Source: Patescibacteria group bacterium
GTDB taxonomy: Bacteria; Patescibacteriota; UBA1384; XYA2-FULL-43-10; CAINNR01
NCBI GenBank assembly: GCA_041651295.1
Contig: JBAZJN010000001.1
Coordinates: 83,662 to 147,661 of the forward strand
Reading direction: 5' to 3'
DNA length: 64,000 bases
Positions 8,892 to 48,464 of this stretch are shown in pieces (positions within the stretch are counted from its first letter, which is position 1; each line of letters begins with the position of its first letter). The position numbers and the translations under genes were made by a program. Below the pieces are notes generated by a model that saw nothing but the letters and a program-made list of their open reading frames with translations, was not told where the DNA came from and ran no database searches.

Positions 8892-9141
8892 TGTACCCCC
8901 AAATTAATGATTCTTACGAGTATTATATCATAATAACTAGAATCTTTTCTTGTCCCGTTTCACTACTTTAGCTAGGCTTTTTTCTGCTGCTTTATCAAGA
9001 TCAATTTTGTTCGAATTGGCAAAACAAATGAGCGTATAGAGAATATCACCGATTTCCAGTTCCAAATCTTGTTCGGCTTCACTGGATTTCTTTTTCTTCG
9101 GCCCCCAAATGTGATTAACCAGACGGGCAAACTCACCCGTC

Positions 9142-9399
9142 TCATTTCCCTGTTAAATACGACTTGAGCCGCTTGTACAAAAAAAGTTTACCATGATAAG
9201 TTTTAAGATATTTTTCACGTTTAAGAGCATCACTTCGATTTAAACACGCTTCAGAATAGATTAACTTGAGAGGTCGGCGATCCTTAGTTGAGTCAACTCG
9301 CCCTTTAGTATGTAGATCAAGTCGTGATTTCAAATTATTTGTATAACCTGTATAAAATTGACTATCTAGCTTTGATTGTAGAACATAAATATAGAACAT
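9142..9399 (-). CDS. GIY-YIG nuclease domain protein (85 aa)
   Basis: MFYIYVLQS..FYTGYTNNLKSRLDLH..REKYLK matches the GIY-YIG/URI pattern. Confidence 0.8.
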   Translation of the reverse strand: MFYIYVLQSKLDSQFYTGYTNNLKSRLDLHTKGRVDSTKDRRPLKLIYSEACLNRSDALKREKYLKTYHGKLFLYKRLKSYLTGK

Positions 9400-9427
9400 C
9401 TTTTTGAAATCATTTAACAGGGTGAAC
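9144..9427 (-). mobile_element. minimal GIY-YIG element bounded by 11-bp inverted repeats
   Basis: CCCTGTTAAAT (9148-9158) and ATTTAACAGGG (9412-9422) flank an insert of about 280 bp that carries only the GIY-YIG ORF. Confidence 0.5.
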
Positions 9428-9513
9428 CATTAGCCGGACCATCATTTCATGCGGAGTCCAATACTCCCATTTTTGTGCCTTCATCCATTTGTCGAGTTCT
9501 TTTTGCTGCTTGT

Positions 9514-11639: not shown

Positions 11640-11704
11640 GTCATTCCCGCGAAAGTGGGAATCTACTAAACTATTCGTGGATCCCCGATCAGGTCGGGGA
11701 TGAC
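11640..11704. repeat. R1 nested-palindromic repeat, copy a
   Basis: GTCATTCCCGCGAAAGTGGGAATCTACTAAACTATTCGTGGATCCCCGATCAGGTCGGGGATGAC; supplies the last codons and stop of the 11689-12735 gene. Confidence 0.8.
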
Positions 11705-14387: not shown

Positions 14388-14645
14388 ATGAAATATTTTG
14401 TTTACATGATTGAAAATGCCAAAAGCAGACATTACATCGGCATTACCACCGATCCAAAGAGAAGGCTGGCAGAACACAACAATAGCGGTGCTAAATCAAC
14501 CAAACCATTTGGTCCATGGAAATTAATATACTCTGAGGAATTCGAAAACCGATCCGAGGCTTGCAAAAGAGAGTGGCATTTGAAAAATTCCGTTGGCAAA
14601 AAAGAAAAGTCTGAGATAATTGAAAAATTTGGAAATACCAACTAA
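14388..14645 (+). CDS. GIY-YIG nuclease domain protein (85 aa)
   Basis: KYFVYMIEN..HYIGITTDPKRRLAEHN..REWHLK matches the GIY-YIG pattern. Confidence 0.8.
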   Translation: MKYFVYMIENAKSRHYIGITTDPKRRLAEHNNSGAKSTKPFGPWKLIYSEEFENRSEACKREWHLKNSVGKKEKSEIIEKFGNTN

Positions 14646-15898: not shown

Positions 15899-15962
15899 AT
15901 CATCCCTAAAAAGTCGGGAAATTACTAAACTATTTTTGGATCCCCGCCTTCGCGAGGACGAC
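15899..15962. repeat. R1 repeat, degenerate copy b
   Basis: ATCATCCCTAAAAAGTCGGGAAATTACTAAACTATTTTTGGATCCCCGCCTTCGCGAGGACGAC. Confidence 0.6.
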
Positions 15963-32119: not shown

Positions 32120-32178
32120 GTCGTTCCCGCGCAGGCGGGAATCTACTATTAGTGGATCCCCACTTTCGTGGGGATGAC
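32120..32178. repeat. R1 repeat, copy c
   Basis: GTCGTTCCCGCGCAGGCGGGAATCTACTATTAGTGGATCCCCACTTTCGTGGGGATGAC. Confidence 0.8.
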
Positions 32179-41381: not shown

Positions 41382-43094
41382 TTATTTTATTAACTCAATT
41401 GTATCACTACTTAACTTCTTAAATCCAATTTCGCTGTTAATATCGAGTACAGATTTAATTTTACTGGCTTTCTCGGCTCCCCTCATCAGTTGCGGTTTGA
41501 CCTTAATTTCCTTCGTCGGTAAAAATGTTAAAGTAATTTTTTCCTTTGTGATCGTGCCGGCGAGAATTAATCCTTGCTGAGTTTCTTCGGAAAAGAATTG
41601 GTCAAAGACAAAATTGCCCAGCGAATAGACCACTGGTTTGCCATCGATTATCTCAAAATCCTGCGTTACATGCGGATGAGATCCGACAATCAGGTTGGCG
41701 CCGGCAGCGATCCACTCTTTCGCCATTTGTCTTTGTGATGCCGAATGTTTTGGCGCATACTCCGTTCCCCAGTGTGGATAGACGATGACAAATTGTCCAG
41801 CGGCCTTTTCTGCTTTGATTTTTGCCTCGAGAGCTGCCTGATCAAAATTTTCCAATGTCATTATCCCGATAATTGTCATCGGGACTTCACCGGCTATTCG
41901 AAGAACTGACGCTTCGGAATAACCTGTGGGCAGACCAAAGTATTTGATACCGGATTGATCGAGCATCTTCTTGGTTGAGACAAAACCGCTGGCTCCGGCG
42001 TTATTTGTGTGATTGTTGGCAAGTGATACCGCGCCTACATTTATATACTTTAGGATTGATGGAATTTCCGGTTGAAAATTAAATACCATCGAACCGGTTT
42101 CAATCCCTGGAATTGATTTTTCGGATACTGGTCCTTCAAGATTTAGAACCGGAGCATCAACTCCGCGAAAAACTCTAGTGCCAAAATTATCAAAAAGTGA
42201 TTTAAAACCGGCTGTTTTGGACCGCTGCCAAACATTTCGGTCAAACATGGCATCGCCGGCGATAACAAATGAAGACGATGGTTGTGACAACGTTTGCGAT
42301 TGCTTGTCAGAATAATATCCCAAAACTACACTTGTCGTTTCGGCATCATCATTTTTCGCCTCGGCACCCGAGTTACCATTATAGAAAAGATTGAAATTTT
42401 TTGCGCTTCTTTTATCGGCAATTCTGGCGGCCAAATATAGTGCTTGCGGCGAGTCTGTCTCAGCTTGCCAAATTTTATCAAAATCCAGGCCGGATAACGC
42501 CTGAATAGAATATTGGTCGTGAATTTTTGCCAGAGCGTTCGGCTGGTAATGAGAAAAATCAACCGAAGCAATTATTTGGCAATCGTTGCAGTTATCATTT
42601 AGCCAATCAGCCAGCTTGTCGACTTCCGCCCTGCTTGTACCGTCTTTAATAATTATCGGTAAAAAATTCTTGCTTATGTTCGTTGTTACATCAGCAAGGA
42701 CGTTTGTAATGCCATGCTCTTTTTCAAACGATGCTTCGTCCAAACCGGCGATTTTTGAATCTGCAAGTTGATTTACCAAAGCTTCAACCGGTGTAGCCTC
42801 ACCTCCGGCTAGTTTCCAAGTCTTTTTTGTCGTTGTGATATTACTCGCTCCGGCATTAAAATGGTCGACGGAAACTACGACTGCAGTTTCCGGCGAATAT
42901 TTTTTTCCAACATCCGCAAGAAGCTCTTTTCTCTTTTCGGAAAAATCATCGAAATGCGGAACGACTACCACCGGAATAAATTCTTGGTTAGCGCTTTTGT
43001 TGCCTGCCGGCGCAATTGCCGGTAATTTGGAAAAATACCAGTAGGTTCCGGCTACCAGGATGATTGAAGTGATGATAAGTATTGCTTTTTTCAT
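41382..43094 (-). CDS. CapA-family (PGA_cap, metallophosphatase-like) protein with an extra N-terminal domain
   Basis: C-terminal half has NLEGPV, LANNHTNNAG, HWGTEY, GSHPHV, YSLGNFVFDQ; N-terminal signal anchor. Confidence 0.7.
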   Translation of the reverse strand: MKKAILIITSIILVAGTYWYFSKLPAIAPAGNKSANQEFIPVVVVPHFDDFSEKRKELLADVGKKYSPETAVVVSVDHFNAGASNITTTKKTWKLAGGEATPVEALVNQLADSKIAGLDEASFEKEHGITNVLADVTTNISKNFLPIIIKDGTSRAEVDKLADWLNDNCNDCQIIASVDFSHYQPNALAKIHDQYSIQALSGLDFDKIWQAETDSPQALYLAARIADKRSAKNFNLFYNGNSGAEAKNDDAETTSVVLGYYSDKQSQTLSQPSSSFVIAGDAMFDRNVWQRSKTAGFKSLFDNFGTRVFRGVDAPVLNLEGPVSEKSIPGIETGSMVFNFQPEIPSILKYINVGAVSLANNHTNNAGASGFVSTKKMLDQSGIKYFGLPTGYSEASVLRIAGEVPMTIIGIMTLENFDQAALEAKIKAEKAAGQFVIVYPHWGTEYAPKHSASQRQMAKEWIAAGANLIVGSHPHVTQDFEIIDGKPVVYSLGNFVFDQFFSEETQQGLILAGTITKEKITLTFLPTKEIKVKPQLMRGAEKASKIKSVLDINSEIGFKKLSSDTIELIK

Positions 43095-43097
43095 AAT

Positions 43098-43129
43098 GTC
43101 ATCCTCGGGCTTGACCCGGGGATCCCGAC
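43098..43129 (-). repeat. R1 half-element, copy e
   Basis: Reverse complement GTCGGGATCCCCGGGTCAAGCCCGAGGATGAC matches the second half of the ychF copy; encodes the DedA C-terminus SGSPGQARG-stop. Confidence 0.65.
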
Positions 43130-43803
43130 CTCTTAGATTTTCTGACTTCCTTAATTATTTTTACCGCAATTACGACTGCCAAAAGTGCGATAACCAACCA
43201 CCTGGCAGTCAGAATCTCGACAACCCCGTCAGAGCTATAGTACATTAATACGCCCCAAAATGTTGCCCAGACAATGTTGGCGGCAACAGATTGAATCATA
43301 AACGGCGTAAATGGCAGTTTTAAAATGCCAAAAGCGGTCGAAGTAAGCGCCCCGAGGTTGGGGTGAGTATATGAGATCCATATCCACCAGCTGCCACGCC
43401 GCTCGACTTGTTTTTTAGTCTTCTCCAAAGCCTCACCCATGCCGAATTTGATGAATAACTTATGCCAGCCGGCGTGGCCGATCCAGTAATTGAGTGCATA
43501 AGTAAAACAAAATGATAAGGCGGTCAAAAATATGACGGCGTAAATATTGAGCGACCCTTGTCTGGAAAATGCTGCTGCCAGCAGGATAATTGATGACCCG
43601 GGAAAATAAATGTTGATAAGCGGGATCGATTCGATAATGGCCGAAATGACTAAAACCGGATAGCCATATAGTGCAAAATAATATTTTAAACCCTCCAGCA
43701 AGGCGTCCGGAGTCGGAAAAAAAATCGAGGCAATAATAAAAAAGACGACTAGGGTGGCCAACAAAATTAGCGGAATCGCCAGAGCTTTGACAATTCTTTT
43801 CAT
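43099..43803 (-). CDS. DedA/SNARE-associated family membrane protein
   Basis: Typical DedA N-terminal pattern (YGYPVLVISAIIESIPL..FPGSS) and 4-5 TM helices. Confidence 0.7.
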   Translation of the reverse strand: MKRIVKALAIPLILLATLVVFFIIASIFFPTPDALLEGLKYYFALYGYPVLVISAIIESIPLINIYFPGSSIILLAAAFSRQGSLNIYAVIFLTALSFCFTYALNYWIGHAGWHKLFIKFGMGEALEKTKKQVERRGSWWIWISYTHPNLGALTSTAFGILKLPFTPFMIQSVAANIVWATFWGVLMYYSSDGVVEILTARWLVIALLAVVIAVKIIKEVRKSKRSGSPGQARG

Positions 43804-47351: not shown

Positions 47352-48464
47352 ATGGGATTAAAAATCGGAATTGTCGGACTACCAAATGTCGGCAAATCAA
47401 CATTGTTCAACGCCTTGGTTAAAGGTTCAAAAGCAGAAGCGGCAAATTACCCCTTCTGCACCATTGAGCCCAATGTTGGTATTGTCGAAGTTCCAGATGA
47501 GCGACTGAAACCACTATCCGATGTTTCCAAATCGAAAAAAATCGTTCCGACAGTTGTTGAATTTGTCGATATTGCCGGTTTGGTTCGAGGCGCATCAAAA
47601 GGCGAAGGCCTGGGTAATCAATTCCTTTCACACATCCGTGAATGTGATGCCATTGCTATGGTTGTCCGTTTTTTCAAAGACGAAAATGTAACTCACGTTG
47701 CCGGAAAATTGGATCCGAAAGATGACATCGCTACCATCGAGACCGAATTACAGTTAGCCGATATTGTAACCGTTGAAAAACGCCAATATAACTTGGATCG
47801 CGACATAAAAGGCGGATCAAAAGATGCCAAGACGGAAAAAGAGGCACTTGATAAAATTGCTAAAAAAATCACCGACGGCAAGAACGCCAGAGAAGCTGAT
47901 TTGAACGATGACGAACTAAAACTGGTTAAGTCGCTGGCACTAATGACAATGAAGCCGATTCTCTATATTGCCAACTGCTCAGAGGATCAGTTACTTCGTC
48001 ATTCCCGCGAAGGTGGGAATCTACTATTTGTGGATCCCCGGGTCAAGCCCGAGGACGACAAAGTCGAATATATTCCGATTTCAGCAAAAATTGAAAGCGA
48101 ATTGAACGAACTAAACGAGGTCGAAAAGCAGGAATACCTCGAGTCTCTCGGCATTGCCGATACCGGCATCAATCGGTTGATAAAAGAAGCCTACAAAGCG
48201 CTGAATCTAATCACCTATTTCACCTCAGGCGAGCCGGAAACCAGAGCTTGGACGGTTCGAAACGGGGCCAAGGCCCCGGAAGCTGCCGGGGTAATTCATA
48301 CCGATTTCGAACGGGGATTTATCGCCGCTGAAGTGGTTTCTTGGCAGGATCTATATGCTCAAGGTGGCTGGGCCGGTGCCAGGTCTCATGGGTTGGTAAA
48401 AACCGAAGGTAAAAATTACCTGGTCAAAGATGGTGATGTAATGCTATTTAAGTTTAACGTTTAG
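47352..48464 (+). CDS. ychF: ribosome-binding ATPase YchF
   Basis: GIVGLPNVGKSTLFNAL G1 motif, TGS-like C-terminal domain; contains in-frame repeat R1d. Confidence 0.92.
   Translation: MGLKIGIVGLPNVGKSTLFNALVKGSKAEAANYPFCTIEPNVGIVEVPDERLKPLSDVSKSKKIVPTVVEFVDIAGLVRGASKGEGLGNQFLSHIRECDAIAMVVRFFKDENVTHVAGKLDPKDDIATIETELQLADIVTVEKRQYNLDRDIKGGSKDAKTEKEALDKIAKKITDGKNAREADLNDDELKLVKSLALMTMKPILYIANCSEDQLLRHSREGGNLLFVDPRVKPEDDKVEYIPISAKIESELNELNEVEKQEYLESLGIADTGINRLIKEAYKALNLITYFTSGEPETRAWTVRNGAKAPEAAGVIHTDFERGFIAAEVVSWQDLYAQGGWAGARSHGLVKTEGKNYLVKDGDVMLFKFNV
47998..48059. repeat. R1 repeat, copy d, in frame inside ychF
   Basis: GTCATTCCCGCGAAGGTGGGAATCTACTATTTGTGGATCCCCGGGTCAAGCCCGAGGACGAC is translated as RHSREGGNLLFVDPRVKPEDD. 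Confidence 0.8.

Follow-up and report, generated by a model that had tools for sequence, protein, structure and literature searches.

In-frame palindromic repeats in essential genes are a textbook oddity of Rickettsia. This analysis concerns a repeat of this kind, R1, inside the conserved ATPase gene ychF of a groundwater-type bacterium with a tiny genome, Candidatus Berkelbacteria (Patescibacteria; the organism is identified by the names attached to close homologs). The window is the whole stretch of DNA analysed, 64,000 nt of the forward strand of contig JBAZJN010000001.1 (positions 83,662-147,661; GCA_041651295.1). The genome, labelled G000, is 1.26 Mb long with 42% GC. In the window, ychF occupies 47352-48464 (+), where it is the region's only long open reading frame (ORF), intact and encoding 370 aa. 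R1 occupies 63 nt of it, 47997-48059 (+), and is not found in the 352-aa orthologs of the same family.

The closest described systems are short palindromic repeats. The CGTC-tagged repetitive extragenic palindromes (REPs) have an 8-9-bp stem starting with A-T, a 4-5-nt loop and a 3-nt tail, and form mostly inverted dimers (Di Nocera et al. 2013; PMC3733652). The same study describes the tag variants TGTC and CCTC and equates the CGTC-1 family with dRS3 of Neisseria and with RPE-6 of R. conorii, one of the Rickettsia palindromic elements (RPEs). When CGTC-1 dimers lie inside genes, they encode 20-30 aa. No transposase association was found for the CGTC-tagged REPs, and no dedicated enzyme (PMC3733652). 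In R. felis, 85 of 728 palindromic repeats are within ORFs (PMC1166351). In Neisseria, the Neisseria Transformation Sequence (NTS) has the motif CGTCATTCCCGCGMAVGCGGGAATCYRG (Chenal et al. 2025; PMC11893778). That paper covers intergenic NTS clusters and their effect on transformation; in-frame coding copies and Patescibacteria are unmentioned. It also describes the NTS-ssnA-NTS architecture and compares it with insertion sequences. Literature searches returned no paper on in-frame palindromic repeat inserts in Patescibacteria; such inserts are described for Rickettsia and other Proteobacteria.

The reading favoured for the 63 nt, at a probability of about 0.8, is that they are a gene-less, two-hairpin doublet of the CGTC-tagged REP or NTS-like repeats ('Ssn-related motif' repeats). 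The full form of this doublet in the same genome would be a GIY-YIG gene between two hairpins, and the copy in ychF would be a tolerated insert in the linker of YchF.

The R1 copy in ychF

The ychF ORF has Pfam matches to MMR_HSR1 (6.6e-24) and YchF-GTPase_C (3.5e-36) and matches YchF of H. influenzae (PDB 1JAL) at 1.4e-116. The protein retains G1 (GLPNVGKST), G3 (DIAGL), G4 (NCSE), G5 (SAK) and the C-terminal YchF-GTPase_C domain. The G4 motif, N208-C-S-E211 (47973-47984, +), aligns to NVNE of 1JAL, and all 107 sequences compared have its N208 and E211. The G5 motif, S244-A245-K246 (48081-48089, +), lies downstream of the insert, and its A245 is invariant. An AlphaFold model of the protein (predicted template modelling score, pTM, 0.81) resembles YchF structures at TM 0.77-0.84. 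The gene is found in all 41 related genomes.

An earlier note on this DNA had placed a 62-nt repeat at 47998-48059, within the ychF reading frame. The sequence is present there exactly as quoted, and the placement in the frame holds as well. With the C of the CGTC tag, the element is 63 nt long and is read as 21 codons, residues 216-236 (RHSREGGNLLFVDPRVKPEDD), inside the 370-aa ORF. The peptide stretch across the insert is ...CSEDQLLRHSREGGNLLFVDPR... Because the 63 nt include the C of the tag and contain zero stop codons in the frame of the gene, the ychF frame continues through the R1 copy. The element is presumably read through as an extra 21-residue loop of YchF. The in-gene copies of R1 are in frame only if this C is counted.

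R1 is a two-hairpin repeat of the form CGTCATTCCCG..CGGGAATC-spacer-GGATCCCC..GGGGAYGAC, with the family consensus GTCATTCCCGCGAAGGCGGGAATC-TACTATTAGTG-GATCCCCG(n5-9)CGGGGATGAC. The two hairpin units are inverted relative to each other, and their GTC tags point outward. Most copies are 59, 62 or 65 nt long (overall range 59-67 bp). In ychF, the core of hairpin 1 (ATTCCCGC-GAAG-GTGGGAAT; 48001-48020, +) is of the dRS3/NTS type, with an 8-bp stem, a 4-nt loop and one G.T pair. The hairpin 2 unit (GATCCCCGGGTCAAGCCCGAGGACGAC; 48033-48059, +) is inverted, with its GAC tag outward. Both hairpins are predicted to form in this copy (-14 kcal/mol as DNA; -30.5 kcal/mol, z -3.0, as RNA). In an alignment of 17 copies, 99.3% of the cells of hairpin 1 are paired and four of its eight pairs are changed on both sides, which none of 500 shuffles equals. 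In hairpin 2, the outer stem is kept and the inner stem and loop vary among copies. Pair counts for hairpin 2 are unreliable because its inner stem length varies and MAFFT misaligns it; only those of hairpin 1 are quoted.

The tag, stem, loop and dimer structure of R1 are those of CGTC-1. The CGTC tag is present at 47997-48000, and the other R1 copies have YGTC, inside the described variation. The stem and loop, ATTCCCGC-GAAG-GYGGGAAT, form an 8-bp stem opening with A-T and a 4-nt loop, as in CGTC-1, and the copies form inverted doublets with a conserved spacer, as CGTC-1 dimers do. The tail is CTA and is one base off the CGTC-1 consensus, CCA. R1 appears to belong to the CGTC-1 REP family, which it fits but for this one tail base. 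The ychF copy (CGTCATTCCCGCGAAGGTGGGAATCTAC) also matches the NTS motif at 26 of 28 positions, and the ychF copy of another locus, L031, matches it at 27 of 28. The parallel with RPEs drawn in the earlier note is upheld: hairpin 1 fits CGTC-1, which includes RPE-6. Since R1 has the CGTC-1 features, the parallel is therefore best taken as homology at the level of the repeat superfamily. The ychF case is a genuine in-frame insertion of a hairpin doublet of the CGTC-1/NTS type, of a kind already known from Rickettsia.

Like the RPEs (RPE-6 and RPE-4 are classed as CGTC-1 and CGTC-4 in PMC3733652), R1 consists of short palindromic repeats in intergenic DNA and in frame in ORFs. The two share dimers encoding 20-30 aa, housekeeping hosts that include tRNA-related enzymes, small genomes, the CGTC tag, the 8-bp stem and the 4-nt loop. 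Unlike the RPEs, R1 is hosted by Patescibacteria (Berkelbacteria) and not by an alphaproteobacterium, and has ~22 copies and not hundreds. R1 also differs in having its gene-carrying parent cassette in the same genome and in being known here from sequence alone.

Like the Neisseria NTS/dRS3 repeats and SsnA, R1 has a first hairpin that matches NTS, hairpins around a ~95-aa, single-domain GIY-YIG gene and a spread across phyla. Unlike NTS/dRS3 (PMC11893778), R1 is a fixed 60-nt doublet with a conserved spacer, and the nuclease here is known from its sequence. REPs and bacterial interspersed mosaic elements (BIMEs) with their REP-associated tyrosine transposases (RAYTs; Y1) are also short hairpin repeats, often inverted dimers, tied to one flanked gene and occasionally intragenic. 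However, their tag is GTAG and their partner a tyrosine HUH transposase; the tag of R1 is CGTC, and its hairpins are unrelated to the ends of the Y1_Tnp genes in this genome. Bacterial miniature inverted-repeat transposable elements (MITEs; Correia, Nezha and Coxiella QMITEs; PMC5896051) are likewise non-autonomous and short, have inverted ends, may overlap ORFs and add a peptide. Unlike R1, they are 100-400 bp long and have target-site duplications; R1 has inverted ends (GTCAT...ATGAC) but no such duplications.

Insertion site and history of the ychF allele

In the 352-aa orthologs, the linker between G4 and G5 has 11 residues (e.g. DQLRSFEDDKF), compared with 29 in G000. The orthologs read NCSE(E/D)QL-RSFEDD-K(F/Y)IPISAK and G000 reads NCSEDQL-L[21 aa]K-VE-YIPISAK. 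The 11-residue linker is found in 20 of the 114 metagenomic homologs with a delimitable linker. The earlier note had reasoned that the 21 residues would not be an insertion if orthologs from repeat-free genomes contained them. G001 and G008, which have zero NTS-like units, have the short 11-residue linker (in L008 and L009); the refutation therefore fails and the 21 residues are an insertion. The alignment with YchF orthologs agrees with an insertion but not with a gain of 21 aa. Compared with the shortest orthologs, G000 has gained 18 aa net, and the flanks differ (QL-L[21 aa]K-VE-Y in G000 versus QL-RSFEDD-K-F in the short orthologs).

The site itself is not where the earlier note had put it, between the G domain and the helical insert, but between G4 (N208-C-S-E211) and G5 (S244-A-K). 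The coiled-coil insert comprises helices 122-174, and R1 lies after the chain has returned to the G domain. In the model, the R1 insert lies between beta5 (203-208) and beta6 (240-243) of the G domain, and it begins four residues (D212-L215) past the last residue of the G4 motif. Its confidence (predicted local distance difference test, pLDDT) is ~60-82, compared with 85-95 in the surroundings, and helix 211-220 runs on into it. In this model the insert is probably a low-confidence, partly helical surface loop. Canonical YchF (1JAL) has ~23 residues between G4 and G5, and the minimum in the present family is 11. The canonical linker is read here as the alpha4 helix of the Ras-like fold, lost in this family.

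At least eight further peptides of the hairpin type fill the same linker in other lineages. These include VISTEVEKS..RQARDD, GHSEQSEES..VAQDD, VIPGLTRNL..VTGRDD, VIANAMKQS..GLAMT, CHSERSEES..ANAQDD, MSFLRKQES..QVRDD and VIPAKAGIQ..GPEDD. At the DNA level, L027 and L030 have GTCAT...ATGAC hairpin doublets of other subfamilies at the linker, and L010 and L020 have AT-rich palindromes there. The G4-G5 linker of YchF is a permissive site for hairpin elements.

The R1 allele is present at the same junctions (marked by slashes), CTTC/GTCAT ... GAYGAC/AAAGT, in a sister strain, in P0004 and in P0002. The sister strain has a protein that is 99% identical and the same R1 allele. P0004 (82% identity) has a diverged R1 allele on 22 contigs from several samples, and P0002 (85% identity) has R1 with a 21-nt partial duplication. 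The allele is therefore not an assembly artefact, as it is found both in the sister strain and on the 22 contigs of P0004. On the sister contig, L038, DnaB, a Y1_Tnp gene, Ank, Fic and YchF are linked. The DnaB piece of G000 is at C1:160.2-160.8 kb, in a place that lacks the 606-nt Y1_Tnp segment; the difference is either a rearrangement or an assembly join.

In a linker-masked tree, the three R1-bearing YchFs do not form a clade. Each has an empty sister at 99% bootstrap support: P0004 is sister to P0036, which is empty (support 99/97), and P0002 is sister to P0012, which is also empty (support 99/91). This branching pattern is not congruent with a single ancient, vertically inherited insertion as the sole history. 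Three independent insertions are judged unlikely, since the junctions and the flanks, QLL and KV(E/D)(Y/F), are common to all three and unlike those of the empty sisters. A recent transfer of a large ychF segment among the three lineages is also rejected, as identity is raised only in the element and ~10 codons to either side.

A comparison of L031 (P0004, with R1) and L039 (P0036, empty) shows ~100% identity over 2.1 kb, save for a central tract of ~360-400 nt that is ~63-79% identical and holds the linker. This tract is a swap of filled and empty alleles by homologous recombination. Its ends are not at the R1 element. Within the tract, P0036 is closest to the sister lineage P0025 and P0004 to the subclade with G000 and P0002, a weak hint that the R1 allele is the imported one. 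The R1-free allele of L039 has another hairpin-like insert of 18 aa, VPTIQPSADVGIPTASVG, in the helical domain and inside the same tract.

R1 copies in the genome and the GIY-YIG cassette

The first hairpin (24 nt) matches at three places in the window and nowhere in 100 shuffles. A profile made from six copies and run on the whole genome with nhmmer finds ~16 full and 6 half copies (~22 loci; E down to 1e-19). Approximately 7 of the 22 loci are intragenic, and ~16 doublets have the common spacer CTACTATTAGTGG.

The earlier note had called the ychF copy nearly identical to three intergenic copies. Two are full R1 copies: one at 11640-11704 (+), 65 nt long with a spacer 5 nt longer (E 9.7e-16), and one at 32120-32178 (+), 59 nt long and directly past a stop codon (E 8.2e-18). 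The third, at 15899-15962 (+), is degenerate (74%; E 3.9e-07 over model positions 13-59). Membership in one family is confirmed by the first two E-values. Near-identity is not, as spacer length and the inner stem of hairpin 2 differ and the degenerate copy is 74% identical. A half copy that was missing from the earlier list, a solo hairpin-2 unit at 43098-43125 (-), is identical to hairpin 2 of ychF at 27 of 28 positions. This unit provides the last nine codons (SGSPGQARG) and the TGA stop of a DedA-like ORF at 43099-43803 (-), and it stops 5 nt short of the ATG of the ORF at 41382-43094 (-). Elsewhere in the genome, the R1 copies at C4:34328-34387, C15:25003-25064 and C7:11275-11305 end 1-6 codons upstream of the starts of tsf, rplJ and mreB. 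These positions suggest a preference of R1 copies for 5' leaders.

In-frame R1 copies that are confirmed against orthologs are two in mnmA (residues 136 and 344) and one in metG (residue 246), in addition to the one in ychF. The repeat is thus in frame in several unrelated protein genes and absent from their orthologs. The mnmA and metG loci are at C19:151-1350 (-) and C19:6761-8257 (-) of G000. In orthologs, the mnmA and metG sites are filled by other elements or by Lys/Ser-rich, low-complexity stretches, and metG also has, at residue 388, a repeat-like insert that differs from R1, HPELDSESRGIPKRVRND. From ORF position only, half units are in frame in a queH-like gene and in a gene for an O-antigen-ligase-like membrane protein, and one R1 copy is in frame in a GT2 glycosyltransferase gene. 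The GT2 gene (C1:155205-155891) is not a clean host. A TAA replaces the conserved Tyr of its FMY-ED-DLC motif, 31 codons downstream of the element, and the gene is probably a pseudogene or contains a sequencing error.

Across the order, NTS-like units are present in 34 of 44 genomes, with 0 control hits. They number between 0 and 80 per genome, and many have exact 24-nt cores. Variants with two mismatches mostly have compensatory stem changes, such as CCTGCG..GCAGG and CCCGTG..ACGGG.

G000 contains eleven small GIY-YIG genes and one larger, uvrC-like GIY-YIG gene (a 468-aa open frame). At C3:79617-79958, the R1 profile splits at 27/28. Positions 1-27 (hairpin 1) and positions 28-59 (hairpin 2) bracket a GIY-YIG gene for 94 aa (C3:79703-79924). 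The gene lies exactly in the R1 spacer, so that R1 is this cassette without its gene. Another four GIY-YIG genes of the ~95-aa class are each enclosed by a GTCAT-tagged hairpin pair of their own. In one such cassette, at C3:4179-4484 (gene at C3:4179-4400), the 3' unit is the hairpin-2 27-mer of ychF with GAT instead of GAC. The 94-aa protein matches PF01541 (61.8 bits). GIY-YIG proteins of ~100 aa from Alpha- and Gammaproteobacteria share 60-68% identity with it, and their genes are also flanked by hairpins. NCBIfam and PDB searches with this protein gave nothing specific. The C3 cassette has the NTS-ssnA-NTS architecture, and its protein would be the Ssn-like partner.

Of the small genes, five are of the ~95-aa class with its own hairpin pairs; the one at C19:4644-4865 carries a TGA inside it. 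The other six are shorter (72-89 aa) and form a separate class, in which some genes adjoin tRNA genes. GIY-YIG loci in the window are at 9187-9399 (-) and 14391-14600 (+). The GIY-YIG cassette that splits MazG in the window (~9120-9440) was considered as a relative of R1 and rejected. Its ends are not of the R1 type, and it is a different element.

Explanations for the insert and what it means

In ychF, G000 and L031 are 86% identical at third codon positions within the element and 45% identical in the rest of the gene, and no other 21-codon window is as high. In metG, R1 is at the same site in G000 and G003 (proteins 78% identical), and third positions are 75% identical in the element compared with 50% elsewhere in the gene. 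Both the nucleotide sequence and the hairpins of the element are thus kept far more closely than the codons around them, and constraint or renewal acts on the element as DNA, whatever it encodes. The metG copies of G000 and G003 have different hairpin-2 variants, and that of G003 is identical to hairpin 2 of the G000 ychF copy at 28 of 28 positions.

The most serious alternative, which overlaps the favoured reading, is that the hairpin in ychF is selected for a role as DNA, as an Ssn target that modulates recombination or transformation, with the peptide a tolerated by-product. The third-position identities favour such a role, as do the presence of the ychF hairpin-2 27-mer in 15 of the 44 genomes (exact or with at most one mismatch) and the recombination tract across the element in L031 and L039. 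The reported effect of NTS and Ssn on transformation, together with earlier in-silico work in which genes adjacent to dRS3 are more diverse (Chenal et al.; PMC11893778), also favours it. However, most close relatives are without the element at the ychF site, copy number across the order ranges down to zero, the tract ends do not coincide with the element, and gene conversion or re-insertion explains the conservation equally well. This role is possible but doubtful as the reason why the hairpin is kept.

Co-option of the peptide, in which it replaces the alpha4 helix lost between G4 and G5 and benefits YchF, is improbable. Linker length is in its favour, as the 29 residues with R1 are nearer to the canonical ~23 than is the family minimum of 11. 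The extension of helix 211-220 into the insert in the model and the 81-86% conservation of the peptide between lineages also favour co-option. However, between G000 and L031 the element is as conserved at third codon positions as at first and second ones, and this nucleotide conservation accounts for the conservation of the peptide. Five differences separate the two copies; three alter the encoded residue, and two of these three are the two sides of one stem pair of hairpin 2, changed from A-T to G-C. In other lineages, this linker is taken up by unrelated elements or AT-rich fillers, and the pLDDT of the insert is as low as ~60.

Mobilisation of R1, as a REP, by a Y1 transposase of the IS200/IS605 type (a RAYT) and not by the GIY-YIG nuclease is more improbable still. 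The genome has two Y1_Tnp genes, the sister-strain contig has one 2 kb upstream of ychF, and RAYTs are the established partners of GTAG-tagged REPs (PMC3733652). However, the tag of R1 is CGTC and not GTAG, and no transposase association was found for CGTC REPs (PMC3733652). Each Y1_Tnp gene has hairpins of its own, which are unrelated to those of R1, and no R1 unit is close by; R1 hairpins flank a GIY-YIG gene instead. A link between the Y1 transposase and R1 is rejected because the flanking hairpins are unrelated.

Removal of the 63 nt after transcription or translation, as by an intron or intein, is scarcely credible. The stable RNA fold agrees with it, but group I/II introns and inteins are far larger than the element, which shows no Rfam-type or splicing features, and the in-gene copies keep the frame and avoid stops, which would be needless if they were excised. 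That the segment is native to ychF, or an assembly or annotation artefact with the intergenic copies due to chance, can be dismissed: linker length varies in all YchF proteins and nothing else favours it, whereas no shuffle has any match, the profile E-values are very low, and the allele is present in independent assemblies and absent from close orthologs.

The R1 doublet lies in the linker between beta5 (G4, NCSE) and beta6 (G5, SAK), which is shortened to ~11 residues in this family, and the R1 allele of ychF passes from one related lineage to another in homologous recombination tracts a few hundred bases long. Under the favoured reading of R1 as a tolerated, gene-less doublet, the encoded loop would be tolerated and not useful. 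The element may be preserved through recognition of its sequence or structure by a cognate single-strand nuclease, or by repeated copying from other copies in the genome. An Ssn-like GIY-YIG nuclease may spread or homogenise the hairpins.

Several points weigh against this reading. None of six full R1 copies compared has a direct repeat beside it that would be a target-site duplication, and classical cut-and-paste transposition is therefore unsupported. The exact empty site, QLL/KVEY, is in no sampled ortholog, and the nearest uninserted alleles have different flanks; the original event is therefore not reconstructible base by base. Ssn enzymes are ssDNA nucleases with a known effect on transformation and are not known as transposases (PMC11893778), and the argument for a role of the nuclease in R1 mobility is an architectural one. 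The strong nucleotide conservation could also mean a host function of the DNA hairpin.

The same repeat superfamily that enters genes in frame in Rickettsia also does so in the ultra-small Patescibacteria, a lineage new for this. Within one genome, a gene-less repeat is tied to a hairpin-flanked GIY-YIG (Ssn-like) cassette; CGTC REPs were reported in 2013 without a dedicated enzyme. The G4-G5 linker of YchF is a tractable example: many element subfamilies have struck this one loop in independent events, and recombination swaps its filled and empty alleles. For annotation, these elements explain the recurring peptides RHSREGGN, VIPAKAGI and DSRLRGND in Patescibacteria proteins, and length variation in these proteins is often derived from repeats.

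A more far-reaching proposal, offered tentatively, is that the hairpin doublets are non-autonomous partners of an undescribed mobile system driven by a small, Ssn-type GIY-YIG single-strand nuclease, with in-gene copies re-cut and re-copied ('re-homing'). If this is true, re-homing would keep copies near-identical across lineages with saturated synonymous sites. Hairpin-2 variants would swap between loci, as between metG of G003 and ychF of G000, and short recombination tracts would be seeded. Such a system would act generally as a source of loop insertions and allele exchange in the housekeeping proteins of Patescibacteria.

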